Of a DNA stretch of 64,000 bases, positions 16,051 to 42,178 are shown in pieces. The translations under genes were made by a program, and so were the position numbers. Position 1 is the first letter of the stretch. Each line of letters starts with the position of its first letter. The notes beneath the pieces were generated by a model. It was not told where the DNA came from. It ran no database searches and saw only the letters and a program-made list of their open reading frames with translations. The stretch is taken from the IMG/VR virus record IMGVR_UViG_3300049171_000040, positions 1 through 64,000 of that record, one strand, 5' to 3'. Source of the DNA: a virus.

Positions 16051-16053
16051 CCG

Positions 16054-22438: not shown

Positions 22439-22543
22439 GCCCTCAGGAGCAACTGATCCCACTGAGAGCCGTGCAGACCGCGCGGCTCTCAGTGCTTTCC
22501 AAGACCTCCCGCCGCCGTGGCGGGCCAACCCCTCGGAGGGGAA

Positions 22544-24748: not shown

Positions 24749-24846
24749 TCCTGGTGTAGAGGGCTTTGCGGAGAGTTAGACGCTGGACCGTGCCAACCCG
24801 TTGACGTCCAATACCGGACACGTAGGCGTTCCAGCCGAGAAGCGAA

Positions 24847-24873
24847 CGGCCCCGCCCCTCTTGGGCGGGGCCG
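24847..24873. terminator. hairpin terminator
   Basis: CGGCCCCGCCC CTCTT GGGCGGGGCCG. Confidence 0.6.
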
Positions 24874-24891
24874 CTCTTCGCGTGTCCGGGG

Positions 24892-26145: not shown

Positions 26146-26176
26146 GGATCCTCCAGGGGGTACGCACGTACGGGAA

Positions 26177-26210
26177 AGGCCGGGCGGTGCCTCCGAGGAC
26201 CGCCCGGCCT
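26177..26210. terminator. hairpin between the surface-protein and sortase genes
   Basis: AGGCCGGGCGGT...ACCGCCCGGCCT. Confidence 0.5.
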
Positions 26211-26218
26211 GAGGGGTG

Positions 26219-27487
26219 TTAGGCGGTGCCGCCGAGTCCGGTGTCGATCCTGGTCGGGGTTCTGACGCCGTTGACGACGATCCCGTCCCGGCCGTCCTGA
26301 CCGTCCTCGCCATCCTCGCCGTCCTCACCCTGCGGGCCAGGGCAGACGGCCGGCGGGTCGTTCACTACGAAGGTCCACTCGGCCTTCGCGCCGTCCTTGA
26401 GGACATAGCCCTCAGCGGCTTCCGCCTTCACGGTCACTTCGCCGGGCTGCACGGTGTACCGGTCCTGCAGCACCTCACCGGAGGCCGACTTGTAGATGAC
26501 GCCCTTGACGTCCGGGATGGTGATCCGCGAGATGCCCTCGGTGGCGCAGGTGGCCTGCTCCAGGGTGGGCTCAACAGGAGTGACCTCAACGATGGTCGGC
26601 GTGACAGTCGGCTCCACAGTCGGAGTCGGCGACGGGCTCACCGTAGGAGTCGGGGTCGGGGTGGGGCACGCCGCCGGCGCGTTGACCGTCAGCGTCCACG
26701 AGGTCCGCCCGTACAGCCGGTAGCCGTCCTTGGCCTTGGCTACGACCTTGTACGTGCCGGGCCACACCGCGTGGGCGCCGGACTTCGTGGTGCGGAACCG
26801 CTTGCCGTACGCCACGTATGTGACGCCGCGATCGGACGGGATCGTCAGCCGGCCTCGGGTCTCGCCACAGTCCGGGCTGGTCACAGTCGGGGCGTCCGCG
26901 GTGACCTTGACTGAGCACCGCTTGCCGGTGATGTCGCCGGAGCTTCCACCGCTGCCGTCCGTCCGGCGCTCGGCGCAAGTCCGGTAGGACCAGCTCCACG
27001 CGCCCGCCGCGACCTGAGCGTCCTTGCCGAAGTACAGCGCAGGCCAGTTGCTCGTCGGCTGCGGCATCCCACTGCAGTCGCCGCGGTTCGGGACGGCAGG
27101 GTTGCAGCGGAAGTTGTACGCCTGTCGCACGAGAGCGCGGGTCGGCGCCGTCTTCGAGGTGACGACGAATTGGAAGGTGCCGTAGAACGAGCCGGGCTCC
27201 GCTCGCGTGATCGGCACGCCAGCACCCGGCGAACGCGTCCCGGGCATGGTCCGGAACGAGCCGGAGTCCTTCAGCAGGACGTTCCAGGTGTCTTCCGTTG
27301 ACCCCTTGGAGATGTGGGCGGTGCGGTTGTAGTCCAGGCGGGACCAGTAGCCGTGACCGCCGTTGTCGAGGTTCCCGCTGATGGCGACGGTGTGGGAGAG
27401 CCCCGTAGACGCGCTGGCCGTGCCGACCGCCAGGCCGGTCAGTGCCAGCCCGAGCGCGGCGCCTAACGCCGCGATCCTGCTGATCAT
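26219..27487 (-). CDS. secreted surface protein, putative sortase F substrate
   Basis: Signal peptide, two repeated beta-rich domains around a PT linker, short Gly-X-Y run, C-terminus PTRIDTGLGGTA. Confidence 0.75.
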   Translation of the reverse strand: MISRIAALGAALGLALTGLAVGTASASTGLSHTVAISGNLDNGGHGYWSRLDYNRTAHISKGSTEDTWNVLLKDSGSFRTMPGTRSPGAGVPITRAEPGSFYGTFQFVVTSKTAPTRALVRQAYNFRCNPAVPNRGDCSGMPQPTSNWPALYFGKDAQVAAGAWSWSYRTCAERRTDGSGGSSGDITGKRCSVKVTADAPTVTSPDCGETRGRLTIPSDRGVTYVAYGKRFRTTKSGAHAVWPGTYKVVAKAKDGYRLYGRTSWTLTVNAPAACPTPTPTPTVSPSPTPTVEPTVTPTIVEVTPVEPTLEQATCATEGISRITIPDVKGVIYKSASGEVLQDRYTVQPGEVTVKAEAAEGYVLKDGAKAEWTFVVNDPPAVCPGPQGEDGEDGEDGQDGRDGIVVNGVRTPTRIDTGLGGTA

Positions 27488-27672
27488 TCATCCCTCCAGG
27501 GGATCTTGCCGGACCCCGGTGGGACCGGTCATGGCGCGGCAGAGACGACACCTCTCGGGGCGGCGCACTGCCAGCCGCGGCCATTGTCCCATCTGGAGCA
27601 AATCGGCTACGAGTTTCGCCGTTTTGTACAAACAGCGGAGTAGGCTCGGGTTGTCCAGGTCCGCGGGAACAC

Positions 27673-27708
27673 AGCAGCCCGCCACCTCTTCGTGAGGTGG
27701 CGGGCTGT
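27673..27708. terminator. hairpin terminator
   Basis: CAGCCCGCCACCTC...GAGGTGGCGGGCTG. Confidence 0.65.
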
Positions 27709-27729
27709 CGTCGTGTGCGCGCCTAGGAG

Positions 27730-28200
27730 TTACTCGGTGGCGCGAGAAACGATCTGGGAGACGCGCTGGTGAGACAGCCCAATGGCGCTGCCGATGTCGC
27801 GGGTCGTCCAGCCCTGGCCGGTGAGCAGGCCGGCGGCGTGGCGGACCGCGTCGCGTTCGGCCTGCTCGGCGAGGATGCGCGCCGAGCGCGTCTCACTGAC
27901 GGCGAGGAGAGCGGTTGCCGCTCTCTGGTCGGCGGGGGTGAGGTGGAAGCCGATGGTGGTGCCGTGGGGGACGGGGTCGACTAGTTCGAGGACGGCGTCC
28001 AGGCCGTTGTGCGCGACCTCTCTCCAGGTCCCGCCCCGGACTTCGAGGGCTTGACCGTCTGGGAGGTCGTGGACGGTGGCGGTCCAGTACTTGCCGTTGC
28101 GGACGGCGGTCGCGCGATAGATCGTCGCCTCGGTGGAGGCCGGTTCGGTGTCGTCGAGGAGGTCGGGCCGGTCGAAAATTGATTCGGTGTACGAGGTCAT
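27730..28200 (-). CDS. HicB-like antitoxin / HTH protein
   Basis: Y.ATA.R.GKYW.A.V.DLP N-domain and C-terminal G.TTRDIG..IGLSHQRVSQI HTH. Confidence 0.65.
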   Translation of the reverse strand: MTSYTESIFDRPDLLDDTEPASTEATIYRATAVRNGKYWTATVHDLPDGQALEVRGGTWREVAHNGLDAVLELVDPVPHGTTIGFHLTPADQRAATALLAVSETRSARILAEQAERDAVRHAAGLLTGQGWTTRDIGSAIGLSHQRVSQIVSRATE

Positions 28201-28660
28201 GGCCGGGAGCCTATGAGGGGCGACAGGCTTACGTCTAGCGAACTAGCCAAAACGTCTAGACGGATTGCCAATTGCGGGATGACGACGTGATGCCCCGCCC
28301 GATCGCCAGGCGGGGCACCCCCTCACCGGCTAAAACGCCGGGCCGGTCGGCACGATGCTGCCAACGCATCGCGCACCGGTCGCGTCCCTGTGCTCGACCT
28401 TCGAGCCCACAGGCTTCCTGAACGTCGCCATGCAGATCTGGCACTGACTCTCCGGCATGTTCGGATTCGGCATCTTCCCTCGCTTCTGTGTCCTGTGCCC
28501 CAGACGGGCCGGTTGGCTCTAGGAAGCCCCAGTTGAGGAACTCGTGGAAGAGGTGTTTGCATGGTCCGCAACGCGTTTGCGAATGACGCAAAGCCACTGG
28601 TCGACCACCACGCGACGGGTTACCGTGAGGAGGTTCGCTGTCGCAGAGAGTGAGACGCTT

Positions 28661-29899
28661 ATGGACTCGCGCTCCACTGCAGGGACCATCGTTCGCACCG
28701 CCCGCGTCGCCCAACGGATGACGCTCGCCGAGCTTGGACGGCGTACCGGCTACTCCGCCGCGCAGGTCTCCCGCCTGGAGCGGGGGATCGCGTCGCTGTC
28801 TGATGTTGTGGTGCTTAGGTTGTTCGCCGAGGCTTTGGCGATACCTCCGGGGCGGTTCGGCCTGGCGTGTACATCCCCCAACCACCAGCCAGTGGTTACA
28901 GTGAGTAACCACCGTGAAGAGGAGGCCGATCCGATGCGGCGACGTACACTGCTGGCCGCGGCCGGCTTGAGCATCCCCTTGAGCGTGGTCCAACGAGTCG
29001 AGGACGCGCTCGCCGTCCCTCCGGAGCCGAGCCGCGTCGAAGGACTGGCGGGCATCCAGAGCCGACTGGCGCAGGCCAAACGCCAATATGACCTGAGCGA
29101 ACTCGCCATCCTGACGGCCGGCCTTCCCGACCTACTGTCCGCGGCGCAGCACACCGCTGAACGAGCCGACACACCCGCAGGGTGGGCACTGGTGGCGGAG
29201 TCTCACGCTCTGGCGACCGACGTACTCAGCAAGATCGGACGCGACGGAAGCGCCCGGATCACCGCAGACCGGGCGATGCAGCACGCAAAGCGATCAGGCG
29301 ACCCGGTGGCTATCGGAACCGCGGCGCGCCCTCTCGGGATGGTGCTGCGTAAGGACGGCCGGCACGAGGTCGCAGCCGCTGTCGTGCTGCGGGCGGCCGA
29401 CGGACTGGAGAAGGCGGGCTTGCGGACCGCGGCGCAGGCATCCACGTACATGCGGCTGCTGTGTGCCTCCGCGTACACCGCGAGCTGGGCCGGAGATCAG
29501 CGGCGCGCGTTGGAGCGGATCGGGGAAGCCGAACGTGCTGCCGGTCGTCTGGCTGCTCTGACCGGGAGGCGAGGCGGGCTGCCGTTCGTCGCGTTGTACC
29601 GGTCGAACATCAACTACGCCCTGGGGGACGCGGAGGCGGCGCTGCACGAAGCACGCGGCCTGCGGGCGGACATGTACCCGACGCCAGAGAGACGCGCCCG
29701 GTTGCACACCGACCGAGCACGGGCGTACTGGCGGTGCGGCAAAGCTGAGCAGGCCGCTCACGCGCTGCTGGCCGCGCACCGGGAGGCTCCGGGCGAGGTC
29801 AGGGACCGGCCATCCATCAGGGGAGTCGTGGAAGAACTCGCCCTTCGCCACACACGGATGTCTGGTGTGCGGGAGCTCACGGCGGCCATGAGCATTTGA
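28661..29899 (+). CDS. XRE-family HTH regulator with helical/TPR-like C-domain
   Basis: RTAR...RMTLAELGRRTGYSAAQVSRLERG, internal MRRRTLL, and PERRAR..TD.ARA and APGEVR.RP motifs. Confidence 0.85.
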   Translation: MDSRSTAGTIVRTARVAQRMTLAELGRRTGYSAAQVSRLERGIASLSDVVVLRLFAEALAIPPGRFGLACTSPNHQPVVTVSNHREEEADPMRRRTLLAAAGLSIPLSVVQRVEDALAVPPEPSRVEGLAGIQSRLAQAKRQYDLSELAILTAGLPDLLSAAQHTAERADTPAGWALVAESHALATDVLSKIGRDGSARITADRAMQHAKRSGDPVAIGTAARPLGMVLRKDGRHEVAAAVVLRAADGLEKAGLRTAAQASTYMRLLCASAYTASWAGDQRRALERIGEAERAAGRLAALTGRRGGLPFVALYRSNINYALGDAEAALHEARGLRADMYPTPERRARLHTDRARAYWRCGKAEQAAHALLAAHREAPGEVRDRPSIRGVVEELALRHTRMSGVRELTAAMSI

Positions 29900-30064
29900 T
29901 CCGCAAGGCGGAGATGCCCCGCCTCCCCTCGCCGGAGGCGGGACACCATGTCGACCCGAGGTGGGGACGAGGGCCGGGGAGGTGATCCTCGTCCGCCACG
30001 CCATCTAGAACATCACTCGGTTGCCAGGAGAAGACGCCCGATATGCCTCACTGGTTGTCATAGG

Positions 30065-30256
30065 TCACAAGAGAGGTCGTATCGGGATAACCTCCACCAG
30101 GTCCGCCAGATCCACATGCTCCGCCACCTCGGCTGGCGTCCGGCAGTCCGCATGCCAGTAGCGGGTCCTGCCTACCCGCTGGGAGATGCGCAAGATGGGA
30201 AGGCGGTCGAGCACGACGAGTTCCACCTCAAAGCCGTCCACACCTACCCACCGCAT
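30065..30256 (-). CDS. hypothetical protein
   Basis: MRWVGVDGFEVE...VDLADLVEV; ATG lies 6 nt after TATCCT. Confidence 0.5.
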   Translation of the reverse strand: MRWVGVDGFEVELVVLDRLPILRISQRVGRTRYWHADCRTPAEVAEHVDLADLVEVIPIRPLL

Positions 30257-30346
30257 GCCGGGCAGGATAAGAAACGGCAGGTCAACGAAGCGCAAAACAA
30301 CGAGCCCGCCCTCTGTTGTGGAGAGGGGGGCTCGTCGGCTGTACGA

Positions 30347-31006
30347 CTAATCCTCGCGGTAGCCGTCGCCGATGAGGTCGATGCGCCGGTCGTGGAGGTA
30401 GCTCTCCACCTCGTGGGGACTGGAGAACGAGCGAGTGTCCTTGTCGCTGATCCCGTCCACGGTGAAGGACTCGACGACCTCGCTGCCGGTCACAGTGATG
30501 GTGATGGTGTCGGTGCCCCACTCAGGGTTGTCGTTGTCGCGAGTGAAGGTGGCCCCGACCACGTTGAGCGTGGGCAGATACTCGCGGGCGGCAGCACCGA
30601 GGGAGTCGGCCAGGACGAGGAGCGTGACGTCACGCTCCTCGTCCCACGTGGCCACGGCGGTGAGGTCGTCGGTGCTGGTTGGGCTCTGCCCGTCGCCCTC
30701 GCTCGGCTCCCACTCGCCGTTGATCCACGCGGCGGCGTCCTGGGCGAACATGCCCTCCATGTGGTCGCCTGCCAGGTGCAGGGACCATGCATCCTTGCCC
30801 CGTGCGATGACGAGGAGGTCGCTGTTGGTCTCGTAGAGGGTGACGCTCATGACGGACTCCTGGGGGACGAGGCTGACAGGGACGATCGCGGCGTAGGGGC
30901 GGCCGTACTTGGTCAGGTAGGTGACCTCGCCTCGGTGGTGCGCCGCGTCGGCGAGGTCCCCGAGGGTTTTGCGTGCCTGCTCGATGCCGACTTCCTTGCT
31001 GCTCAT
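30347..31006 (-). CDS. Phd/YefM-like antitoxin domain fused in frame to an acidic unknown domain
   Basis: EVGIEQARKTLGDL......GEVTYLTKYGRPYAAIVPV; internal RBS CAGGAG before ATG at about 30850. Confidence 0.7.
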   Translation of the reverse strand: MSSKEVGIEQARKTLGDLADAAHHRGEVTYLTKYGRPYAAIVPVSLVPQESVMSVTLYETNSDLLVIARGKDAWSLHLAGDHMEGMFAQDAAAWINGEWEPSEGDGQSPTSTDDLTAVATWDEERDVTLLVLADSLGAAAREYLPTLNVVGATFTRDNDNPEWGTDTITITVTGSEVVESFTVDGISDKDTRSFSSPHEVESYLHDRRIDLIGDGYRED

Positions 31007-31030: not shown

Positions 31031-31122
31031 AAAGCTGTCTAGGGCCTGAGCCGAGAAGGTTGGAACTCCTCGCACGACTACGCCCCGCCCTCAGAGAGAG
31101 CGGGGCGCAAGCCGAACCGGAG

Positions 31123-31428
31123 CTAGGCGGCCTTCTTCGCCGCCGCCGCCTTGCCTGCGACGTTCACGACGTCCTTGAAGTCCGAGCCCGCCTTGAACTT
31201 CGGCACCCAGCACTCGGGCACATCGACAGTCCCGCCGTTACTCGGATTCCGCGCGGTGCGGGCGGGCTTGTGGACCATCTCGAAAGAGCCCCACCCGGTG
31301 ATCGACACCTTGTCGCCGGACGCGACCGCTTTCGCGATCGCTTCGAGGACCGCGTTCACGGCTTCGGTCGCAGTGGCCTTGCCGCCGACGCGGTCGGCGA
31401 TGGCGTCGATGAGGTCGCTCTTGTGCAT
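31123..31428 (-). CDS. hup: HU family DNA-binding protein
   Basis: MHKSDLIDAIA, GDKVSITGWGSFE, ARTARNP.NG and PKFKAG. Confidence 0.92.
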   Translation of the reverse strand: MHKSDLIDAIADRVGGKATATEAVNAVLEAIAKAVASGDKVSITGWGSFEMVHKPARTARNPSNGGTVDVPECWVPKFKAGSDFKDVVNVAGKAAAAKKAA

Positions 31429-31520
31429 GACTATCTCCTTGCAGATGGTTGTTCGATGGATGATCCCATAGCGGATAGCCGAATGAGGTTCGGTGGACCG
31501 CGTGAGCAAGATCGCCATGA

Positions 31521-31548
31521 CCGGGTGATAATCCTCGTTATCGACTGG
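31521..31548. other. dif/loxP-like recombination site (11-6-11)
   Basis: CCGGGTGATAA TCCTCG TTATCGACTGG; arms 8/11 inverted-identical; abuts the recombinase stop codon. Confidence 0.65.
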
Positions 31549-31549
31549 T

Positions 31550-32539
31550 TCACCACAAGACCTTCGCAACACGCACCGAAGGGTCATTCTCAAGCCGCTT
31601 CGGCGCATCCACGTAAATCTCGGTCGTATCCACCGAAGCGTGACCCAAGGCGTATTGCACCTCACGAAGCGTCGCACCACGCGCAACGGCCAAAGTGGCG
31701 AAAGTGTGCCGCAACATGTGCGGAGTGACACGCTCCGGCCGATACAGCCCAGCTTGCCGCGCGATCCGCTTCACCATCTCCGAGACCTCGCCCGTAAGCA
31801 TCGCCCGCCACCTCGCCGTCACGAACAACGGGCCGGCCGCCGAACCACGCGAGTCGAGATAGGCGTCCATCGTCTCGCTCGCCTCGTCGGGCAGATGCCG
31901 GGTACGGATAACGCCGCCCTTGCCGACGATCCGCACCGTCCGCATGCCCTGCTCGAAGCCGAGCGACGCCGGCGCGAGCGAAACCACCTCGGCGGCTCGC
32001 GGCCCGACCATGAGAAGCATCGGCAACACCGCGGCGGTCCGCAGCCGTTGCCGGCCGTGGTCGTCCACCGCAGCCCGCACCATCGCCTGCGCCTCGGACT
32101 CCGTCAAAGAGACCGTGCTGGACTCCCGCCGGTTGATCTCCGGCCGTCGAGCGCCGGCGAACCGGTTGGCATCGAGCACCGACTCCTCAACGAGGTACGT
32201 GTACCACGACGACACCGCGGCGAGCTTCCGCGCCGCAGACCGCCCGGACAGCCCGCGGGTCCGCTCCAGCCACCCGCGGTAGGCGTCGCCGTGCCCGCGC
32301 GTCACCTCCAGCGGGTCGACGTCACGTTCGGCGCAGAACGCCAGCCACTCCCGCAGATCGGTGCCGTACGCCTTGCTGGTGTGCTCGGACCGCTGGTGGA
32401 GCAGCCACGCCCACACGATTTGCTTGACGGACACGTCCATGGTGGCGATCTCCGCCGTGAGACGTCGCTGCCACAACGGCAGCGGCTTGACGGGCCGGTC
32501 CGGCGCCGGGGCGTGGACGTGGTCGAGGAGAAGGCTCAC
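31550..32539 (-). CDS. XerC/D-like tyrosine recombinase
   Basis: SAM-like domain (T..AY..DL..W, RKLAAVSSWY) and catalytic R (GPRAAE), K (GKGG), HMLRH, LGHA and TTEIY. Confidence 0.92.
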   Translation of the reverse strand: MSLLLDHVHAPAPDRPVKPLPLWQRRLTAEIATMDVSVKQIVWAWLLHQRSEHTSKAYGTDLREWLAFCAERDVDPLEVTRGHGDAYRGWLERTRGLSGRSAARKLAAVSSWYTYLVEESVLDANRFAGARRPEINRRESSTVSLTESEAQAMVRAAVDDHGRQRLRTAAVLPMLLMVGPRAAEVVSLAPASLGFEQGMRTVRIVGKGGVIRTRHLPDEASETMDAYLDSRGSAAGPLFVTARWRAMLTGEVSEMVKRIARQAGLYRPERVTPHMLRHTFATLAVARGATLREVQYALGHASVDTTEIYVDAPKRLENDPSVRVAKVLW

Positions 32540-32937
32540 TGCTGGACGCCCCGGTCTCCATCGGCGGCCCGCCAGTACGCGTCGCTGCAGTACTCCACGA
32601 CAGCTATCCGATGGTTGAGGTGGTGCTCGGTGACGTGCAGTCCGGCGGCGTTCCGTGAGCCGTCCGCCGTTCGGTAGTTGTTGCCGGTCCACGGGCAGGC
32701 CCCGCACCGCCACGCGTAGCCGTACCGGTGCGGGTTGGCCCAGACGTCGATCCCGAACCCCCACACGACCATCCCTGGCGGGATGACGACCGTGGCGGCG
32801 AGCTGCATGACGAGGGCGCCCGCCACCTCTGGGCGGCCCTGCACTGCGGTGTCGAAGCGGTGCCGCGCGCCGGCCAGGTCCCGGGCGTCGAGGCACTCGG
32901 TGATGGTGTCCACTGCCTGGGTCAGGGTGGCGGTCAT
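32536..32937 (-). CDS. hypothetical protein with C..C...H....H Zn-finger-like motif
   Basis: RBS GGAGG; WRCGACPW..H...HH; GTGA-coupled to the recombinase. Confidence 0.55.
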   Translation of the reverse strand: MTATLTQAVDTITECLDARDLAGARHRFDTAVQGRPEVAGALVMQLAATVVIPPGMVVWGFGIDVWANPHRYGYAWRCGACPWTGNNYRTADGSRNAAGLHVTEHHLNHRIAVVEYCSDAYWRAADGDRGVQQ

Positions 32938-33026
32938 GACGGGTATGCCTCCAAGTGGGCGGGGTGGTGTTCTCGCGCACGGCTGCGCGTGGGATGCGGC
33001 GCGAAACGTTTTTGATCTTGATTGAG

Positions 33027-33188
33027 GGTGCAACGGGCCTTCTCGCAGAGGTGCAACAGGGGTGCAAACCGGGGTGCCACGGGCGGTGCAACGAGGGGGT
33101 GCAACCGGGGTGCCACACCACCTCTGACCTGTAACACCCTCGCCCGTTGCACCCCCAGCCCCTCCCGCGAGCCCCGCCAAGGTGCAAC
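33027..33188 (+). repeat. clt-like array of 8-bp GGTGC(A/C)A(C/A) repeats (candidate TraB recognition sequences)
   Basis: Direct copies at 33027, 33050, 33061, 33073, 33085, 33098, 33109 and 33181; inverted copy at 33146; immediately downstream of traB. Confidence 0.8.
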
Positions 33189-33193
33189 TGCAG

Positions 33194-35431
33194 TCAGTCG
33201 ACCTCGGGCCGTCCGAGCATCAGGTGGCGCTGCGCCTCGTCGTCGTAGCCGAGGACACCCGTCTCGCGCAGCTTCTTCAACCGGCCCTGAGCCCACTGCC
33301 TTGTCATGTCCGTCGACGTCCACAACGGACTCAAGTCGCCCGTGGTGAAGTCCCGCCGGCCGTGATCCCACCAGTCCTGCAGCAACTGGACCAGCGCCGC
33401 CAAACGTGCCTCCGGAGTCATCGGCGTCGCCTGCGTGAACTTCCACGGCGGTTCCCCCTCATCCAGGTCGGGAATCTCGTCGTCCAGACCGGCCTGTATC
33501 GATGGGTCCGGGTCGGGTTCGGTCAGATACTCGGCCACCACGTCCTCCTCGGTCTCGTCGTCCGGGTCCTCGTGCGAGCCGCCGCGGATCGCCTGCAGCA
33601 GCTCCTCCAACTCGTCGGGCTGGGTGAGCACGGCAGGTGCACCGCTTTCACGCGGCGGGCCGACCGCGTCACGTCGCCGCAGTTCGGCGATCAGCGCCTC
33701 GGCCTCGGCGAACCCGACCCGGATCTTGCGCTGCAGCATCGACGCCGAAGCGAACTGAGTGTTGACGACCAGCTCGGCCGCCTGCGCGAGAAGGTCAACG
33801 TCGATCGGAGCCGCCGCGGTCACGGGGGCGGCCTGAGGCGAGGCGGTCAGACGAGAGAGAGCGGCGGTCCCTGCGTCCACCTGCTTAGCGGAGGCAGGCC
33901 ACTGTGCGGCGTGTGCCCGCATCGCCTCGTTCGCCCGCTCGTCGTCGAACTCACCCCTGGCGTCGATGCCCCACGCGAAGGTGCGCAGCGGCATCGCATA
34001 CCTGCCGTCCTCGATCGTGGGCGCGTCGAGGTACTGCATTCCGGGCTGCGCGTTGGTCCACAACTCCGGACGGCACTCGGCGTCCTGCTGCCGGTCGCTT
34101 AACCCGAAGGACGCATCGGCGGAGTTCTCTACGCCAAAGCACGCCTTGGCGAGCTGGCCGCGAGCAATCGTCGGCATCTGCGAATAGTCGGACCGCTGCA
34201 ACGACAAGAACACCGACCCGCCGCCAGAACGAATCGCCTTCAGCAGGGACAGGAACCGCTCCTGCTCGGCATCAGTCAGGGCGTCGAAGACGTCGGGGAA
34301 CTCCTCGATCCACAGCACCTGGTACGTCAGCCCGCACCCGGCCTTCCACTTTTGCAGGCCCTTGGCCGCCAGCTTTTCGGTGCGGTCCTTCACCTGGGAC
34401 TGCATCTCGTTCAGCAGCGCCTTGGCACCGGCCTGGGTCGTTTCGAACCGGTGTAGGGCGTCTTCCAGCGGGCCAAGCGTCTGCTTGCCCTTGGTGATGT
34501 CGATCGCGAACACGGCGACGTCATGGCGAGTGATCAGTTCGGCGAGGTAGTTCCATGCCCCGCCGATGCTCTTGCCGGCGCCGGTCATGCCCATGATCTG
34601 CACGTGGTGGCCGACGATGACGTGGCACACCTCGTCGAGGTCCTGCCAGACGCCTGTGCGCAGCGGTTCGGCCACGCTGCCGCCCGGGCGAGACGGGCCT
34701 GGCCAGGCGATGGGCTTCTTCATCACCCGCGCGTCAGAGATCACGACGTTCGCCTTCGATGCGTCGTCCGGGTCGATCGTCGTTGTAATGCTCCCGGGCG
34801 GGAGTTGCATCCCGGATTCGATGTAGCTGACCTTCTTCGTCAGGTCATCTGCCGTCTGTTTCCCCGGCTCAAGCTGCACCTTGCCTTCCACCTTGTGTGG
34901 GGTCGCGGCGGTCGTCTTCGCCTCGATCGCGGGCATCCCGGCACGCTCGGCGCCTTGCCCGAACAGCATCGCGAGCGGGTCGGCGACGACGCTCTGCACG
35001 TCCACCCCCTTGAGACGGATGATCGTGCGGATGTTCCATGTCAACGCCAGGGTTACGCCGCCCACGAGCGCGAGGCGGCCAGTGAAGACGGTGGCCGGCC
35101 CGTTGATGGTGGCGGCGCATACCCACAGGCCGGCGAGCAGGGTCGTGACGGTGGTGTGGGTCCGCCCCCACGGGCCGCGGGCGTGGGACTGGCCGTAGGT
35201 GACGCCAGTGAGGACGAGCACAGCGGCGGCCATCAGGAACATCGTCCAGGCGACCACCTGCGGGTCATCGGAGCGCAGGATGAAGTGGAACGCCGTGCCC
35301 ACGCCATACCCGAAGATGCCGACGACCCACGGCGACATCAGGGCCGCGAGCTTCGACGCTTCCTTCGCCGCGACCTTGGACATGCTCGACTCTGTGTCGA
35401 CGGACACCAGGTCCTTGGTACGCGTCGCCAT
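33194..35431 (-). CDS. traB: TraB-type conjugative DNA translocase (FtsK/SpoIIIE family)
   Basis: N-terminal TMs, Walker A GMTGAGKS, Walker B LWIEE, SLQR, FtsK gamma-like segment and terminal wHTH. Confidence 0.88.
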   Translation of the reverse strand: MATRTKDLVSVDTESSMSKVAAKEASKLAALMSPWVVGIFGYGVGTAFHFILRSDDPQVVAWTMFLMAAAVLVLTGVTYGQSHARGPWGRTHTTVTTLLAGLWVCAATINGPATVFTGRLALVGGVTLALTWNIRTIIRLKGVDVQSVVADPLAMLFGQGAERAGMPAIEAKTTAATPHKVEGKVQLEPGKQTADDLTKKVSYIESGMQLPPGSITTTIDPDDASKANVVISDARVMKKPIAWPGPSRPGGSVAEPLRTGVWQDLDEVCHVIVGHHVQIMGMTGAGKSIGGAWNYLAELITRHDVAVFAIDITKGKQTLGPLEDALHRFETTQAGAKALLNEMQSQVKDRTEKLAAKGLQKWKAGCGLTYQVLWIEEFPDVFDALTDAEQERFLSLLKAIRSGGGSVFLSLQRSDYSQMPTIARGQLAKACFGVENSADASFGLSDRQQDAECRPELWTNAQPGMQYLDAPTIEDGRYAMPLRTFAWGIDARGEFDDERANEAMRAHAAQWPASAKQVDAGTAALSRLTASPQAAPVTAAAPIDVDLLAQAAELVVNTQFASASMLQRKIRVGFAEAEALIAELRRRDAVGPPRESGAPAVLTQPDELEELLQAIRGGSHEDPDDETEEDVVAEYLTEPDPDPSIQAGLDDEIPDLDEGEPPWKFTQATPMTPEARLAALVQLLQDWWDHGRRDFTTGDLSPLWTSTDMTRQWAQGRLKKLRETGVLGYDDEAQRHLMLGRPEVD

Positions 35432-35817
35432 CAGTCGTCATTCCAGTCGAACGTGGACTTCTGCTTCTCGGGCTTGGCCTGCGGGAGAACGTCCACGAAC
35501 TCCTTGCGGAACTGCGCATGAAACTTCACCATCTCCACGCCGCTCGCCCGCTGAAGCTCAGCAGAGCGCTTGAGGCGGCGCACGACCCGCCTGGCTCGCC
35601 ATTTCACGTCCGGGGCGCCCAGCACGCTGAGGATCGGGTGGCCCTTGAACGAGCGGACGAGGACGGCGTACAACTCGTCGGACCCGAGGTTGAACTCCTC
35701 GCCCAGGTCGCGGGCGAGAGCGCGGCCGACCTTGGCGTACTCGGTGATCGACCTCGGGCCGCCCCAAGGGATGTTGGACAACTCGGGGATGCGGCTACGT
35801 CCGGGTTTGTCAGTCAC
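35431..35817 (-). CDS. TraA-like plasmid transfer protein
   Basis: Coupled to traB; RARRV.R.LKR.AE.......KF...F pattern of the small basic genes preceding actinomycete traB. Confidence 0.55.
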   Translation of the reverse strand: MTDKPGRSRIPELSNIPWGGPRSITEYAKVGRALARDLGEEFNLGSDELYAVLVRSFKGHPILSVLGAPDVKWRARRVVRRLKRSAELQRASGVEMVKFHAQFRKEFVDVLPQAKPEKQKSTFDWNDD

Positions 35818-36035
35818 AGGGAGTCCTCCCAACTCTCCCGGACGGCATCACGAAGCTGACCGGAGATGAAGCCGATACGGCGGGTGCCGATACGGGCGGT
35901 GATCAACGCGTCTGTGGCGGTGATCAGTAAGACGACGACGTGGCCGGTGAGGGTCAGTGCGACCGTCACCCGCGCTACGGCGGCGTAGGCCAGGATGCGA
36001 GCCCATCGACCCGCTCTGACGTGGATGCCGCGCAC
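35814..36035 (-). CDS. small membrane protein of the transfer operon
   Basis: RBS GGAGG, one TM, overlaps the traA-like start. Confidence 0.5.
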   Translation of the reverse strand: MRGIHVRAGRWARILAYAAVARVTVALTLTGHVVVLLITATDALITARIGTRRIGFISGQLRDAVRESWEDSL

Positions 36036-36111
36036 TGGTCCTCCTTCTGCCGGGAGTTAGCTCAGTTGGTGTCGGCCCGAGGGCCGCCAGGGGAGGAGCA
36101 GCGGGCGGCGC

Positions 36112-36279
36112 TCACTGCGACCTCCGGCGGGTGATGCAGGTGGGGCACGACGACTGGGCGCAGTAGTTCTTGGGGGTCACGGACCAGATCGCCAGCGCCC
36201 GGTCGGGGCTGTGGCGGGTAAACCTCAACCACCAAGCGATGACGTAGGTACGAGCGGCGACAACTGCAGGGGCCTTCAT
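36112..36279 (-). CDS. small Cys-containing protein (55 aa)
   Basis: ATGA-coupled to the upstream gene; MKAPAVV...YCAQSSCPTCITRRRSQ. Confidence 0.4.
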   Translation of the reverse strand: MKAPAVVAARTYVIAWWLRFTRHSPDRALAIWSVTPKNYCAQSSCPTCITRRRSQ

Positions 36280-37850
36280 CGCTGGGCCCCGTTCAGACCT
36301 TCGGCCACCGGGGTGGTCGCGACCAGGTCGGCGTCCACTTCTGCGACCGGGTCGGCAGGAGGGACGAAAGCGCCGCGGTCGTCAGGAGCCCACCCCTCGT
36401 CGAGGAGGATCTCCTTGCCTTCGTCGATGCGGTCGCCGCACCAGGTCGGCTTAAATCCGGTGCGGGCGGCGAGCTTCCACTTCGACAACTTCTCGCCCGC
36501 CTTGTAGCGCTTCACCCACCACTTCGCGACACGGCGTTTGTCCTCGTCGGTGGGCTCTTTCTGGTCGGCGTCCTGGTCGTCATCTGGTCGCGTCCTTTCC
36601 GCGTCCTCGTTGCCTTCGGTGTCCCGTGTGGCGTCCAAGCCGGCGGCCGGCGGCGGCAGCAGGAGCGGGTTTGCGATCGGTCGCGGTTCTGGACGCGTCC
36701 ATACCTCGAACGGGATGATCGCGCCGACTGGTCGCGGGTCGCCAGGGTTGATCGCGAGTCGCTTGCGCACCGGGGGGATTAAGGGGGCCGATCTGGTCGG
36801 CGGTTCGGTCGCGGTGTTGGACGCGTCCTGGTCGGAGGTCGCGACCGGCAGCGGGTAGGTCTCGCCGCGGAGGGCGGTGTTGCGATCCAGAGCGGCGGAC
36901 AGGATAATCGCCTCGCTGTCGCGCATCAGGCCGGTGACCGCGGGGTGGTCGAGGTGTTCCCACGGCGCGTCGCCGGGAAGGTCGACCAGGCGCGCCGTGC
37001 CGTATAGAGCCGTCAACGTGTCGAGCATCGCTGACTGCATTCCCCGGTCGCGGGCGAGGCCGGTGTGCTCCACGGCGCGGTCCATCGCCTTGTCGAGCTT
37101 CGTCATCGCGGCGATCATCTTGCGGTCCGATGCGCCGGCCTGGCGGAGCGCGCGGGCTTTCTTCGCAGCCAGGGCCACGCGGGTGATGCGCCGCTGCTTG
37201 TCGACCTCACCCGCGGTACGGTCGCTCGCCTCCGCCAGCCCGAGGCGCACCATCATCCGCTCCGGCGTCACCCGCCAGTGAATACGGCCACGGCCGGTGA
37301 TGCGGTGCCGCTCGATCGCCATGCCGCGCTCCCACAGCCACGCTGCGACCAGCGGCGCCGCGAGCCGGAACATGGCCTCCGGGATGGAGTGCGCGTCCAT
37401 GCTCGACAGGACGGCGGTCAGGCCAGTCAGCGCCCACACCGCTATGCCGTCGATGCCCGCGGAGTAGTTTTCCCGCATGTTGCGCCGGGCCCGCACCGCG
37501 CTGGTGATGACGGCGACCTCGATGAACGCGAACAGCAGGAGGCGCAGCGGCCCGTCGAAGCCGAGGACGTCGTGGGAGAAGCGCCACATGCCTTGGGCTG
37601 AGACGCCCGTGGCGATGATGGCGGCGACGATCGTGAGGACGTCCTCAGCGGTGCGGGCCGCGACGAAGCGGCCGACCACGCGGGCCAGGTGACCGACCGC
37701 GCGCTTGAGGCGGCGTAGCAGCCACCATCCGAACGCGAGAACGAGAACACCGACGACTATGGCGATTGCCCATCGGATTTCCGACGGCAAAGCCTGAAAA
37801 AGATCAACGGGTATACCGCTGACCAGCATGGCAGCACTATCGTGCGTCAT
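36276..37850 (-). CDS. Spd-like / DUF2637-like multi-pass membrane protein with C-terminal HTH
   Basis: About 5 TMs, coiled-coil, Pro-rich linker and terminal LSKWKLAARTGFKPTW; first large gene of the tra operon. Confidence 0.6.
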   Translation of the reverse strand: MTHDSAAMLVSGIPVDLFQALPSEIRWAIAIVVGVLVLAFGWWLLRRLKRAVGHLARVVGRFVAARTAEDVLTIVAAIIATGVSAQGMWRFSHDVLGFDGPLRLLLFAFIEVAVITSAVRARRNMRENYSAGIDGIAVWALTGLTAVLSSMDAHSIPEAMFRLAAPLVAAWLWERGMAIERHRITGRGRIHWRVTPERMMVRLGLAEASDRTAGEVDKQRRITRVALAAKKARALRQAGASDRKMIAAMTKLDKAMDRAVEHTGLARDRGMQSAMLDTLTALYGTARLVDLPGDAPWEHLDHPAVTGLMRDSEAIILSAALDRNTALRGETYPLPVATSDQDASNTATEPPTRSAPLIPPVRKRLAINPGDPRPVGAIIPFEVWTRPEPRPIANPLLLPPPAAGLDATRDTEGNEDAERTRPDDDQDADQKEPTDEDKRRVAKWWVKRYKAGEKLSKWKLAARTGFKPTWCGDRIDEGKEILLDEGWAPDDRGAFVPPADPVAEVDADLVATTPVAEGLNGAQR

Positions 37851-37942
37851 GGGATGCAGACCTCTGCTTCGAATCGGTCGGTCTGTTATCCCAGCGTCCC
37901 CCCGGCTGGCGTTGGCGCGTCAGTTTGGGGGGCGCACTGGAG

Positions 37943-38191
37943 TTATTCGGTTGTGTCTCCGGAGTTGGCGCTCCGGGCTTTCCTCTGTCGCTTCGAGATC
38001 GCCTGCTGAGACATCGCAACGAGTTCGGCGATCTTGTCTTGTGTCCACCTCCGGTTGCCGGCCAGCTTGCGCCGTCCGGCTTCCTGGATCAGGACGTCTA
38101 TCTCGTCGTTGACGGCTTTCAGTCGCCGCGCTGTGTTGCGGAGTCTGTCGGCAAGCATTTCGTCGCTCAGCTCCTCCAGGTTCTCCGGCAC
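37943..38191 (-). CDS. small HTH regulator heading the transfer operon
   Basis: WTQDKIAELVAMSQQAISKR. Confidence 0.75.
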   Translation of the reverse strand: MPENLEELSDEMLADRLRNTARRLKAVNDEIDVLIQEAGRRKLAGNRRWTQDKIAELVAMSQQAISKRQRKARSANSGDTTE

Positions 38192-38221
38192 TTCCTTTGT
38201 CTACCACCGCCCGAAGATCAA

Positions 38222-38236
38222 TACAACCTGGTTGTA
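38222..38236. promoter_or_regulatory. palindromic operator TACAACC-T-GGTTGTA
   Basis: Perfect 7-1-7 inverted repeat in an AT-rich patch about 30 nt upstream of the HTH gene. Confidence 0.6.
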
Positions 38237-38311
38237 AACCTTAATGTCGATGCGGCGAAGCCCCCACCCGTCACGGGAGGGGGCCGGGCTGCTGCGCTAT
38301 CGCAGGTCGAG

Positions 38312-38919: not shown

Positions 38920-39062
38920 GAGGGTTCCGCCGGCTCGTGTCCGCCCCACCCTTTGACGGCGCAGCGTCCCGCGTGCGGTCCGACGATGGCTTCCCACGCG
39001 GTGCCGAGTGCGCTGCTGATCTCCTGGATCTCCAGGTCGCAGTGGCGGCAGACGGCGGTCAC
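38916..39062 (-). CDS. small Cys/His hypothetical protein
   Basis: CRHC...W...C...HEP; GTGA-coupled. Confidence 0.45.
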   Translation of the reverse strand: MTAVCRHCDLEIQEISSALGTAWEAIVGPHAGRCAVKGWGGHEPAEPS

Positions 39063-39463
39063 GGCGTCACGCTCACGAGGAACCAGACGACCTTGCCGCC
39101 GCCGGGGAGCGGGTCCGCGCCCCATTTGTCGGCGTTGAAGTCAACGATGTGCAGGCCGCGCCCGCGAGTAGCTTCGGCGTCGGGCTGGCGGGGGATGAGC
39201 GGAACCATGGCGCCGTGGTCGCGGACTTCGCCACGGACGATGTGCCCGTACCGGTAGAGCGCCAGCGTGACCGGCGGTCCGCCGTGGACGACGGCGTTCG
39301 TGACGAGTTCGCTGACGAGGAGTTCGATGTCCTCGGCGGGCGTGCCCGTGATCTCCCATTCGGCGAGAGTGTCGCGGACCATCTTGCGGGCATCGCCCAC
39401 GGACCTATAGTCGCCGGTCAACTCCTTGCACGCATGCTGTGGGACGCACGCCTCGGTGATCAC
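39059..39463 (-). CDS. ATP-binding protein (HATPase_c, RsbW/AbaA-like)
   Basis: LLVSELVTNAVVHG, EVRD.G, GRGLHIV, WG and GKVVWF. Confidence 0.9.
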   Translation of the reverse strand: MITEACVPQHACKELTGDYRSVGDARKMVRDTLAEWEITGTPAEDIELLVSELVTNAVVHGGPPVTLALYRYGHIVRGEVRDHGAMVPLIPRQPDAEATRGRGLHIVDFNADKWGADPLPGGGKVVWFLVSVTP

Positions 39464-39750
39464 GACGTCACCACCTGCTCATCGCGCGTGCGCTCCGCCA
39501 ACTCCTCGGCGAGCGTCGCCAGCAGGTCGTGTACGCCGAGGAGCCTGTCGAGCGCGGCCCGGTTGTCCGCGCTGACGGTGACGGCGCATCCGGCGTCTCG
39601 CTGAGCTCGGCTCAGCGCGTCCCTGCGGGTGACCCACCAGCGGTCGCTGTCGGTGCGCCACGGCTGGTTCCAGCCGGAGAAGTCCGGCTCGATCGGCTGC
39701 ATCAGCGGCTCCGTCATGATCTGGGCGGGCGGTTGTCTGTGCCCTATCAT
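39460..39750 (-). CDS. hypothetical protein
   Basis: W.TD..RWW.TR...L.....AGC..TV.AD motif; coupled to the ATP-binding gene. Confidence 0.55.
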   Translation of the reverse strand: MIGHRQPPAQIMTEPLMQPIEPDFSGWNQPWRTDSDRWWVTRRDALSRAQRDAGCAVTVSADNRAALDRLLGVHDLLATLAEELAERTRDEQVVTS

Positions 39751-39861
39751 GTGGCTGCACGGTCAAAACTGCAACGTGCAATTTGAGATGCGACCCAAAT
39801 GTCTCTTTCTGAGTCGTCTGTGGATTACGATCAGCATCTCGACACGGCCAGGAGACGAGTG

Positions 39862-40713
39862 ATGACAGAGAGCAGCCGAAGCCCGACAGTCCGCCGACGC
39901 CGCCTGGCGACCGAACTGCGACGCCTCCGCGAAGCGGCGGGCCTCACCATGGAGGACGCCGGCGAGGCTCTCGACCTGTCGCGCGCCACCATCTCGCGCA
40001 TCGAGGCAGGCAAGACCGCCAGGCCGAGACCCCGCGACATCCGGGACATGCTCGATCGCTACGGAGTGACAGACCCGCAGGAGCGGGAGGCGATCATGGA
40101 GCTTGCTCGCGGCGCCCGCGAACGCGGATGGTGGGAGCAGTACAAGGGCGTCTTCACGGGTACGTTCGTCGGGCTGGAGGCCGAGGCATCCAAGCTCCGC
40201 ACCTTCGAACCGCTGGTCATCCCCGGCCTACTCCAAACCCCGGAGTACGCGGCGGCGCTGACCCGCGCCTCCCTCGTCCGCGACCCCGCCGAGGTCGCCA
40301 GGCACGTGGAAGCCAGGATGCGGCGCCAGGAAATCCTGGCGAGAGAGAACCCTCCGCGTTACTGGGCGATCATCGACGAGGCCGCACTGCTGCGACCCAT
40401 CGGCGGCGCGGACGTCCGACGTGAGCAGATACGCAAGCTGATAGACACGAGCCCACTCGATCACGTGACGGTCCAGGTCATGCCGATGTCCGCCGGCCCG
40501 CACGTGGGACTCTGGGGTCAGTTCGTCATCCTGGACTTCAATTCCGAGACGGACCGCAGCCTGGTCTACGTGGAGACGCCTACGGACGGGCTCTATCTGG
40601 AAGAGCCTGATCATGTCGAACGCTATACCCTGATGTTCCAGCACCTCTGTGCAGACGCACTGGGTGCTGACGCGTCGATCGCGTATCTGTCCAGTATGGT
40701 CGACCGCTTGTGA
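39862..40713 (+). CDS. XRE HTH + DUF5753 regulator (WhiJ-like)
   Basis: SPTVRRRRL..ELRRLRE, RGWW, IPGLLQT.EYA and IIDEAAL.R. Confidence 0.92.
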   Translation: MTESSRSPTVRRRRLATELRRLREAAGLTMEDAGEALDLSRATISRIEAGKTARPRPRDIRDMLDRYGVTDPQEREAIMELARGARERGWWEQYKGVFTGTFVGLEAEASKLRTFEPLVIPGLLQTPEYAAALTRASLVRDPAEVARHVEARMRRQEILARENPPRYWAIIDEAALLRPIGGADVRREQIRKLIDTSPLDHVTVQVMPMSAGPHVGLWGQFVILDFNSETDRSLVYVETPTDGLYLEEPDHVERYTLMFQHLCADALGADASIAYLSSMVDRL

Positions 40714-40722
40714 GGCATCGGT

Positions 40723-40920
40723 ATGGATCTGTCCCGCGCCGAATGGCGCAAAAGTACGCTCAGTCAGGGTGGCGGCAATAACTGCGTTGAGGTGGCCAGC
40801 AATCTGCCTGGCATCATCGCGGTCCGCGACTCCAAGGACCCCGAGGGCCCCAAGCTGGTCTTCACCCCTGGCGAATGGTCAGCATTCGTCGGCGGCGTGA
40901 AGGGCGGCGAGTTCGGGTAG
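40723..40920 (+). CDS. DUF397 protein
   Basis: WRKS..S...NCVEVA...VRDSKDP.GP.L.F...EW.AF. Confidence 0.93.
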   Translation: MDLSRAEWRKSTLSQGGGNNCVEVASNLPGIIAVRDSKDPEGPKLVFTPGEWSAFVGGVKGGEFG

Positions 40921-41454: not shown

Positions 41455-41874
41455 GTGATCGATTACGAGTCGGAATTCACCGTAAAAGAGCAGGTCGCCG
41501 CCGATCTCCGGCGTCGCATCGCTGACGGTGAATGGGGCCCCCGCCGCAGGCTTCCGACCGTGGTCCACCTAACACAGCAGTACGGTGTCGCTAAGGACAC
41601 CGTCGCGCTCGCGCTAGGCATGCTCCGAGACCTGGGAGTGATCTACACGGTCCCCAACCGAGGCAGTTTCGTACGGCTCGGCGCCGACAACGTAACCGTC
41701 GTCACGCTCGGGCCAGGAGACCGCGGCTTCATCCGCCAGCCGAGCGAGAACGAGCGCACCGACCTCGACCTAGGCGAGGACGTCATGGTGCTGGTCGTCG
41801 AGCGCGCCGGGGGAGAGGTCGAGGTTCTGCCGGCCGACAAGGTGGAGCTGTCCGGCGAGGTGTCTGAGAAGTGA
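41455..41874 (+). CDS. GntR-family winged-helix regulator
   Basis: QVAADLRRRI..GEW.P..RLP....L...YGVA..TV..AL..L...G......RGSFV. Confidence 0.9.
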   Translation: MIDYESEFTVKEQVAADLRRRIADGEWGPRRRLPTVVHLTQQYGVAKDTVALALGMLRDLGVIYTVPNRGSFVRLGADNVTVVTLGPGDRGFIRQPSENERTDLDLGEDVMVLVVERAGGEVEVLPADKVELSGEVSEK

Positions 41875-42028
41875 GTGACAGCACGTCAGCGGCCGTGAGG
41901 GTTTCGGTCATTCGCTCTGTGATTGGTCTAGTCGGCCAAGATCGTGCTTACCGCACTCGCCTTTAAGGTTTTCGCTCGGCCGTGACGTGGGTATACGCAG
42001 CTCGCTACATTGTTCGACCCCGAATCTC

Positions 42029-42073
42029 CTTACAAGCGAGGGGTCACTGGTTCGAACCCAGTACCGCCCACCA
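42029..42073 (+). other. attP core = 3' half of tRNA-Val(TAC)
   Basis: CTTACAA GCGAG GGGTC ACTGG TTCGAAC CCAGT ACCGCCC A CCA, with no 5' half upstream; about 100 nt before the integrase; followed by a hairpin. Confidence 0.88.
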
Positions 42074-42178
42074 CAAGCCCCTGACCAGCAGAAACGGTCG
42101 GGGGCTTCTTGCTTGCCTTTTGGCTACATTGCATCTACACCCCTCGCCTTTTCCGATCGCGCCACCTACCTTGGCGCA

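Follow-up and report, generated by a model that had tools for sequence, protein, structure and literature searches.

The subject of this analysis is a stretch of 64,000 nucleotides (the window), corresponding to bases 1-64000 of the 100,074-bp viral record IMGVR_UViG_3300049171_000040 (G000), and above all a leftward operon within it that resembles the TraB-type transfer genes of Streptomyces plasmids. The window is part of a complete-looking cos-type linear temperate siphovirus of Streptosporangiaceae, and we consider it very probable that this is an intact temperate phage in which a Streptomyces-type transfer module is an integral part of the genome, with no inserted actinomycete integrative and conjugative element (AICE). 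We hold this view because no Rep gene or att pair accompanies the module, its two sides are assembled at equal depth, its slot is conserved in diverged relatives, and its nearest non-phage relatives are of AICE type. We further infer, with moderate confidence, that the circular phage genome is transferred by its own TraB module independently of the virion, a reading that is consistent with every feature described below. Three relatives are used throughout for comparison: an isolate provirus (G001), a 71.6-kb linear metagenome record (G002), and the provirus of Streptosporangium sp. NPDC050855 (G003). Individual TraB or phage loci carry L-numbers, L054-L059 being IMG/VR viral contigs. Genes were called by third-position GC.

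The operon runs from a palindrome (38236) to an HU gene (31123), and its genes overlap or abut one another, as expected for an operon. A preliminary description of the window had proposed a co-oriented block of these parts at 31123-38236, and gene calls, Pfam and NCBIfam searches, and repeat and motif reading recovered them at or near the positions it gave. The parts, in the direction of transcription, followed by a hairpin beyond HU and a separate regulator gene, are these:

38222-38236, no strand assigned: palindrome TACAACCAGGTTGTA, candidate operator upstream of the helix-turn-helix (HTH) gene, read in the sequence
37943-38191, minus strand: HTH protein of 82 aa, encoded by the first operon gene; its match to Sigma70_r4 is weak (E 0.009)
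36276-37850, minus strand: Spd-like protein of 524 aa, with a DUF2637-related N-terminal domain of four transmembrane (TM) helices and a variable C-terminal half (TM prediction, hhalign)
35814-36035, minus strand: 73-aa small membrane protein with a single long hydrophobic segment
35431-35832, minus strand: TraA-like protein of 133 aa (NF041213, E 1.6e-9), its stop overlapping the traB start
33194-35431, minus strand: TraB, 745 aa (NF041214, PF09397, Foldseek)
33027-33188, minus strand: clt-like array of GTTGCACC-type 8-mers, starting 6 nt after the traB stop and ending within 170
32536-32937, minus strand: Cys/His open reading frame (ORF) of 133 aa (CGACPW...HH..H), read from the sequence and overlapping the recombinase start
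31550-32539, minus strand: Xer-like tyrosine recombinase, 329 aa (PF00589 3e-26, PF02899 5e-10)
31521-31548, minus strand: dif-like 11-6-11 site CCAGTCGATAA-CGAGGA-TTATCACCCGG with inverted inner arms, 1 nt after the recombinase stop
31123-31428, minus strand: HU/IHF-like DNA-bending protein (PF00216 7e-25; IHF/HU NCBIfam models 2.5e-22)
31081-31107, minus strand: GC-rich hairpin 3' of HU, with 12-nt arms that are 92% complementary
41455-41874, plus strand: GntR-family regulator, TraR/KorA-like (PF00392 7.9e-13)

The central component of the module is TraB, which is composed of an N-terminal TM region, an FtsK-like motor, an FtsK-gamma-like winged HTH (wHTH) domain (residues 546-603), an acidic linker, and a C-terminal wHTH domain. 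The match to the TraB model NF041214 covers model positions 4-627 of 639 (E 1e-114), the FtsK_gamma domain is detected by PF09397 (E 8.8e-14), and both the Walker A (MGMTGAGKS) and Walker B (WIEEF) motifs are intact. Annotated TraB proteins of Streptomyces plasmids are 27-39% identical in tblastn. An AlphaFold model of the protein had a mean pLDDT of 60.6, with values of 64-91 in the ATPase core and 75-96 in both wHTH domains, and Foldseek searches with it returned the FtsK motor (E 2.8e-6), the FtsK-like coupling protein TcpA, and FtsK gamma (TM 0.76-0.90); sequence searches of PDB with the single protein and with a profile returned nothing, and the fold search was needed for these structural matches. 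The tra module is under purifying selection between phage copies, with dN/dS of 0.26-0.39 for TraB and 0.17-0.26 for the TraA-like protein. In INPHARED, megablast with the block found nothing, and tblastn with TraB gave weak FtsK-like matches only. The FtsK-gamma insert (window 33194-33810, TraB residues ~540-745) is limited to a subset of the family (G000, G001, G002, and L033-L035), and most AICE and phage copies of TraB are ~670 aa long and lack it. A second FtsK-gamma protein (343 aa, PF09397 2e-13) is encoded in the early region at G000 63946-64977 (L030:3946-4977), far from traB.

Directly downstream of traB, the clt-like array contains six exact copies of GTTGCACC, one of them inverted, together with the near copies TGGCACC and TTTGCACC, at a spacing of 11-13 bp. 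All six copies found in the window lie within 33027-33188, compared with a mean of 1.95 copies in shuffles of the 64 kb, and in an unbiased scan the array was the densest 8-mer cluster of the entire 100-kb genome. The densest 8-mer cluster likewise lies just 3' of the traB stop in G001, G002, and a chromosomal locus of Nonomuraea gerenzanensis, and an array occupies this position in nearly all of 31 related TraB loci. Across these 31 loci, four classes of 8-mer covary with a helix near the TraB C-terminus, and every class has phage-borne members:

Class 1: 8-mer GTTGCACC, helix TDMTRQWAQ
Class 2: 8-mer GTGGCACC, helix TD(M/I)SR(S/A/Q)W(V/A)QK
Class 3: 8-mer GTGGCCCC, helix TDISRAWFQK
Class 4: TCGCGAC-type 8-mer, helix SSRGWLNDQL

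Vogelmann et al. (2011) are said to have found that the C-terminal wHTH of pSVH1 TraB reads the clt repeats. Such covariation of helix and 8-mer would follow if the repeats were read by the C-terminal wHTH here as well, in the manner of pSVH1, for which recognition of its clt by TraB is established (PMC4447253). We regard the array as real and as behaving like a clt, with its repeats predicted to be read by the C-terminal wHTH of TraB.

The smaller parts of the operon are conserved to different degrees. G002 (62%) and G003 (43%) have orthologues of the HTH protein in the equivalent place, and a terminator-like hairpin (38260-38284) precedes the palindrome upstream of this gene. Homologues of the TraA-like protein that are 68-79% identical adjoin traB in 19 of 20 genome loci. 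The block had been described as holding two small ORFs, one of which is convincing (the 73-aa TM protein, with homologues in G001 and five genome loci) and the other not. Similarly, the ORF that had been labelled a Zn-finger does exist, as the Cys/His ORF, whose homologues in L035 and in a prophage of Herbidospora sakaeratensis NBRC 102641 lie directly 3' of traB, but Pfam and NCBIfam searches gave no family match behind the Zn-finger label. The GntR gene just before int is likely the TraR/KorA equivalent; homologues lie near traB in 8 of the 20 genome loci and also in G002, G003, and the Herbidospora prophage. At the other end, the GC-rich hairpin 3' of HU is the probable end of the operon.

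The genome around the operon has all the hallmarks of a temperate tailed phage (Caudoviricetes, siphovirus-type), namely terminase, portal, HK97-type capsid, tape measure, tail, lysis genes, and integrase. Its order is terminase, virion, lysis, tRNA, leftward cargo and tra operon, GntR, Int, attP region, and rightward early genes, and all genes point rightward apart from a central block at ~24.2-39.8 kb. GC content is 64-70%, and the record is typed as linear by IMG/VR and as 90% complete by CheckV. The right arm encodes an anti-repressor, RecE/RecT, an HNH endonuclease, a helicase, a methyltransferase, a DnaC-like loader, and further early genes. The main phage landmarks are these:

55-513, plus strand: small terminase, assigned by position only
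517-2157, plus strand: large terminase (TerL), 41-43% identical in tblastn to annotated actinophage terminases, at the left physical end
2173-20641, plus strand: virion module from PHROG matches, with portal (2e-126), protease (2e-44), major capsid protein (2e-46), tape measure protein (12030-15698; 1e-114), and minor tail proteins (2e-48)
21195-22918, plus strand: lysis cassette, with a holin-like protein, an endolysin (21674-22438; PHROG 6e-37), and a holin (22517-22918; PHROG 3e-13)
41987-43108, plus strand: tyrosine integrase of the phage (PF00589 6e-24)
99100-100026: HNH endonuclease, last gene of the record

The tra operon thus stands, as had been described, between the lysis module (endolysin and holin, 21674-22918) and the attP/int module (GntR and Int, 41455-43108). 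In G003, the homologue of the right-end HNH gene adjoins TerL, and the provirus is split exactly at the int slot of G000, so that both G000 ends are joined; the G000 record is therefore the permutation of the excised or packaged form, whose ends fall between the HNH and small-terminase genes. A Logan contig assembled independently from the source run has its left end at window base 3, within 2 nt of the left end of the record.

Nothing in this arrangement marks the block as a separate element. AICEs are 9-24 kb long, are bounded by att repeats usually located at the 3' end of a tRNA gene, and carry a replication gene of the RepSA, RepAM, or Prim-Pol type. Here, none of the proteins scanned between 24.2 and 45.5 kb matched a Rep family, and repeat searches with seeds of 11 and 14, covering both 22.9-45.6 kb and the entire window, gave chance matches only, with no att pair around the block and no exact flanking repeats longer than 14 nt. 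The tRNA-Arg gene, including its 3' end, has no second copy in the 100-kb genome and is not an att site, and no second dif-like half-site was found. Membership of the AICE class was rejected on this basis, the block having neither its own Rep gene nor the form of a 9-24 kb att-bounded element and lying inside a 100-kb phage genome. The preliminary description had likewise seen no Rep gene and no separate att pair, had asked for a search for bounding direct repeats, and had argued against a simple inserted AICE, and on all of these points the present results agree with it. In Logan contigs of the source run, window positions 3-30642 are covered at a depth of 38 and 30615-73649 at a depth of 34; one stretch gives way to the other within a cargo gene and not at a boundary of the block.

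The same slot and layout, with virion and lysis genes rightward and traB-traA-spd leftward, were found in at least nine diverged phages or proviruses (G001, G002, L054-L059, and the Herbidospora prophage). In G001 and G002, TerL and tail genes are followed by convergent traB-traA-spd, and G002 also keeps the HTH gene; the TraB proteins of these two are 68-73% identical to that of G000, compared with just 25-43% for TerL. A profile scan of IMG/VR yielded 20 TraB-bearing viral contigs, among which L054-L059 have endolysin and/or holin genes convergent 1-10 kb after traB, and minor tail genes likewise except in L056, and the proviruses have traB 0.6-5.5 kb from one provirus end, as expected beside attP. 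Phage late genes also lie convergent, at most 10 kb 3' of traB, in L040, L041, L044, and L052. A single contig of H. sakaeratensis NBRC 102641 encodes TerL, lysis genes, tRNA-Tyr, traB, traA, spd, GntR, and Int; for its att sites, the longest left/right repeat of 17 nt was not convincing. The TerL of G000 matched one of 15 further IMG/VR TraB contigs, which are fragments or have other terminases and so give no count of phages, and among 15 TraB-bearing genomes it had a same-contig match in Herbidospora only.

Two further genomes extend this comparison. In G003, the portal (78%) and capsid (74%) are well conserved, and the HTH, DUF2637, Xer, and dif components are kept, while the traA-traB position (L024:8197-11362) holds a non-orthologous 317-aa ORF and a 724-aa P-loop protein. 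Homologues of the latter are named as FtsK-domain proteins and have a C-terminal wHTH, according to source names and Pfam tags. BLASTP aligned this ATPase with TraB in the Walker A region only, hhalign with the TraB profile was uninformative, and no 8-mer array was detected after its gene. The other genome, L066/G031 (IMGVR_UViG_3300022917_000001, 59.7 kb), has direct terminal repeats and is a complete phage genome with a TerL of 46% identity and a TraB-like gene of 32% identity, which extends the TraB association, as judged from these identities, to more distant phages.

The nearest relatives of TraB outside phages are found in canonical AICEs, such as L047, with the order DUF2637-like, TraA, TraB, Prim-Pol, DUF3631, Int, and L045, with TraB, DUF3987/DnaB_N, Int. 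In the TraB tree, phage-borne and AICE-borne copies are interspersed, and the module therefore moves between phages and AICEs. Taken with the higher conservation of TraB than of the phage core, this is the evidence that would favour an independent AICE, or the remnant of one, as a recently inserted passenger. Such a passenger is very improbable in our view, given the lack of Rep and of flanking repeats longer than 14 exact nt, the equal depth, the conserved slot and order in at least nine diverged phages or proviruses, and the position of the block inside the packaged, excised form. We give still less credence to an assembly chimera or a functionless, decaying relic. The record is a metagenome contig with a CheckV completeness of 90% rather than 100%, but the independent Logan assembly spans both sides at equal depth, the same architecture is present in isolate genomes, all of the ORFs are open, the Walker motifs are intact, and dN/dS is well below 1. 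A phage-plasmid of the pZL12, P1, or N15 type was also considered and rejected, as no plasmid Rep/Par was found in the scanned proteins and there are relatives in the form of integrated proviruses. The proteins scanned were the 20 largest of the right arm and the central ones, with small ORFs covered in part.

With the module placed as an integral part of an intact temperate phage, a route of transfer can be proposed. A free phage circle would arise after excision by Int, or after injection and closure of the cos ends. TraB hexamers would then use the C-terminal wHTH to dock on the 8-mer array. From there they would pump the phage DNA, in double-stranded form, across hyphal tips or septal cross-walls, so that it reaches adjacent compartments or the hyphae of a recipient, with the Spd-like, small TM, and TraA-like proteins aiding its spread through the mycelium. 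In the recipient, the DNA would integrate via Int or enter the lytic cycle. The GntR and HTH proteins may serve as kor-type repressors, and the Xer-like recombinase, dif-like site, and HU would most likely resolve multimers of the circle, a step that the FtsK-gamma domain of TraB may activate. When integrated, the clt array could let TraB mobilise neighbouring chromosomal DNA. In plasmids, it is established that TraB and clt suffice for transfer, and Spd proteins drive intramycelial spread in pSVH1 (PMC4447253).

Several points weigh against virion-independent transfer of the phage circle. It would require a 100-kb circle to last long enough for transfer without triggering lysis, and, with no plasmid-type Rep/Par seen, the DNA would have to become established in the recipient through Int or phage replication. 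TraB is more conserved than TerL, so the module undergoes horizontal exchange and could be selected for its own benefit rather than that of the phage. The TraB and TraA models that the preliminary description had proposed as checks both matched, but both matches fall below the NCBIfam equivalog cut-offs (384 bits against 800 for NF041214, and 38 bits against 80 for NF041213). The outcome for the Spd-like protein, for which DUF2637 had been the proposed check, was mixed: neither the 524-aa protein nor 40 close homologues had a direct Pfam match to DUF2637 (PF10935), whereas its family profile aligned in hhalign with the same-slot protein of G003 (97.5% probability, E 5e-12, 203 columns), which itself matches PF10935 above the Pfam cut-off. 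TM prediction gives it about four N-terminal helices, and homologues that are 70-80% identical are labelled “DUF2637 domain-containing” by several sources. The Spd assignment is thus supported indirectly. The N-terminal half of this protein is also 70-80% identical to proteins of ~415 aa (P0033-P0120) across many Streptosporangiaceae genera, a distribution that points to either a resident element of very wide occurrence or a gene family of the hosts.

The same components could also serve a narrower purpose, in which phage DNA is moved only within one mycelium, across septal cross-walls, with no conjugation between mycelia. One infection event would then take over a whole hypha, either during infection or after induction. 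A protein of the DUF2637-related Spd type is a spreading component in pSVH1, SpdB2 homologues on phages phiC31 and VWB have been proposed to spread phage DNA (PMC4447253), and the hosts are mycelial Streptosporangiaceae, all of which would fit such a role. However, the block has traB together with a TraA-like gene and a clt-like array, and on plasmids it is traB and clt that provide the intermycelial function while spd provides spreading. The two modes are not separable from the sequence, and we regard a purely intramycelial role as unlikely. Returning to conjugative transfer, a broader claim can be made only tentatively and at somewhat less than even confidence: the whole lineage of integrating Streptosporangiaceae tailed phages may be self-transmissible by TraB-type conjugation, as conjugative prophages that spread in two ways, with clt classes shared with resident AICEs, Hfr-like mobilisation possible, and FtsK-gamma coupled to its own Xer/dif in the phage studied here.

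The recombinase, the dif-like site, and HU deserve separate consideration. In the recombinase, the catalytic residues R-K-H-R-H-Y are all visible, the PF00589 match covers model positions 3-168 of 172, and the match to the XerC NCBIfam model (7e-47) is below the cut-off. Orthologues are present in G001 (50%) and G003 (63%). The dif-like site occurs as a single copy in the window, with none expected by chance, and the core ATAACGAGGATTAT or a near copy of it directly follows the recombinase stop in G000, G001, and G003. No orthologue of the recombinase was found next to traB in G002, and none was seen in the interval separating traB from the lysis genes in L054, L057, and L058. The recombinase module is thus a facultative neighbour, and its most plausible role would be to resolve multimers of the circular form. 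These genes also invite a reading of the whole block as a maintenance device similar to FtsK-Xer-dif, in which TraB gamma would activate the recombinase, HU would bend the DNA, dimers would be resolved, and septa or spores would be cleared of DNA. The gamma fold of TraB is indeed near-identical to that of FtsK, the recombinase and dif-like site are conserved together in three genomes with HU adjacent in G000, and the genome encodes the second gamma-domain protein noted above. Against this, the four relatives without the recombinase at that position nevertheless keep traB, traA, and the 8-mer array, the gamma insert is absent from many family members, it is the C-terminal wHTH with which the repeats covary, as in TraB-clt systems, and the closest relatives are AICE transfer genes. 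A maintenance device is improbable on this evidence. As with FtsK-XerCD-dif and the Cre-lox system of P1, a tyrosine recombinase lies beside an 11-6-11 site and an FtsK-gamma domain is encoded nearby; FtsK-XerCD-dif differs in that there is one recombinase gene here and not two, the site abuts the gene, and the link to TraB is facultative.

Among known systems, the module resembles the TraB-clt-Spd systems of pSVH1, pIJ101, and pSG5 (Thoma et al. 2015, PMC4447253). In both, an FtsK-like TraB is anchored in the membrane and ends in a C-terminal wHTH, traB is directly followed by 8-bp repeats, and there are a protein of SpdB2 type with four TM helices (in the phage a putative one) and a GntR regulator; neither has a relaxase or type IV secretion system. 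The differences are that the carrier here is a 100-kb tailed phage with no plasmid Rep, that TraB has an extra FtsK-gamma insert, shares just the 27-39% identity given above, and is associated with the repeat GTTGCACC, and that a small HTH protein heads the operon. Sequence identity is greater with the AICEs of Nonomuraea sp. B1E8 (L047) and Streptosporangium jomthongense (L045), where TraB is 62-68% and TraA ~77% identical, the order spd-traA-traB-8-mer array is the same, and a GntR homologue lies nearby. In these AICEs, however, traB is followed by Prim-Pol/DUF3631 or DUF3987, Int, and host genes, whereas the phage has Xer/dif/HU, cargo, and convergent lysis genes after traB, and no Rep.

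The combination of virions and tra genes on one element has precedents, of which the plasmid-phage pZL12 is the nearest in print. Zhong et al. (2010, in J Bacteriol 192:3747) reportedly described pZL12 with a principal tra gene accompanied by two neighbours. Later papers describe the plasmid-phage pZL12/phiZL12 and its relative pSLE1 as elements of ~90 kb with tailed virions and a conjugal tra locus (PMC3583192, PMC7157519, PMC4487206), pZL12 being presented as an extrachromosomal singleton phage (PMC7157519) and pSLE1 as a syntenic relative of it with ParAB (PMC4487206). Compared by description only, pZL12 differs in being a plasmid with RepA and ParAB and no close relatives, while the phage studied here has an integrase and integrated relatives. 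No similarity at the level of TraB was found in the phage collection searched, which may or may not include pZL12. The SpdB2 homologues of phiC31 and VWB are single conjugation-type genes, whereas a full set including the cis site is present here, and the “FtsK-like DNA translocase” of Streptomyces phage Gilgamesh is an isolated gene whose product is 24% identical over 56% of TraB. According to a 2025 review, no integrated prophage is known as conjugative, and AICE surveys and reviews do not describe traB inside tailed prophages. Given pZL12 and the phage SpdB2 genes, virions and tra on one element are therefore already known; what is new is an integrating carrier with the full TraB/clt/Spd/GntR set.

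Phages and conjugative elements are usually treated as separate vehicles of gene flow. Virion-free spread is not known for any chromosome-integrating phage, and the phage studied here may have that route. If it does, movement of naked double-stranded DNA through hyphal contact would bypass receptor-based resistance as well as capsid size limits on host range, and lysogeny would spread through the mycelium without killing it. Chromosomal DNA would possibly be mobilised as well, including antibiotic gene clusters in important producer organisms. Culturable lysogens are known in H. sakaeratensis NBRC 102641 and Streptosporangium sp. NPDC050855, and the covariation of 8-mer and helix offers a ready-made specificity code for TraB-DNA recognition.

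The remaining features of the genome concern its integration region, cargo, and regulators:

43214-43267, no strand assigned: tandem 9-bp CTTCTCGGG-type repeats just 3' of int (family D1 in the repeat search)
23126-23198, plus strand: phage-borne tRNA-Arg(ACG), found by ARAGORN
24287-31006, minus strand: cargo between the lysis genes and the tra operon (Pfam)
39059-40920: WhiJ-like triad of a HATPase_c_2 protein (minus), an XRE/DUF5753 regulator (plus), and a DUF397 protein (plus), from Pfam

The CTTCTCGGG-type repeats are possible arm-type sites of attP. They resemble repeats in several Streptosporangiaceae genomes; when the 1.46 kb after int was searched in 121 genomes, no attB was identified, the match being limited to the tandem repeat. 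The integrase at the int slot of G003 is a serine integrase. A tRNA gene lies between the lysis cassette and the tra module in both phages in which it was noted, Arg here and Tyr in H. sakaeratensis (G018:C9 591987-592069). The cargo comprises a lamin-tail-domain (LTD) protein, DUF6221, a sortase, a 422-aa protein, a sigma-like HTH protein, an XRE protein (28544-29899, on the plus strand), and a 219-aa protein with a weakly Phd/YefM-like N-terminus. Within it, the LTD protein, DUF6221, and the sortase occupy 24287-27487 together with the adjacent repetitive 422-aa protein, for which the preliminary description had suggested the role of sortase substrate. The WhiJ-like triad stands between the tra operon and GntR/int; its HATPase_c_2 protein is anti-sigma-like, and the DUF5753 and DUF397 genes are kept in G003. 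Among the head genes, two paralogous glycosyltransferase-like genes (phrog_26352) are found at 6107-7099 and 7732-8715, with direct repeats between them.

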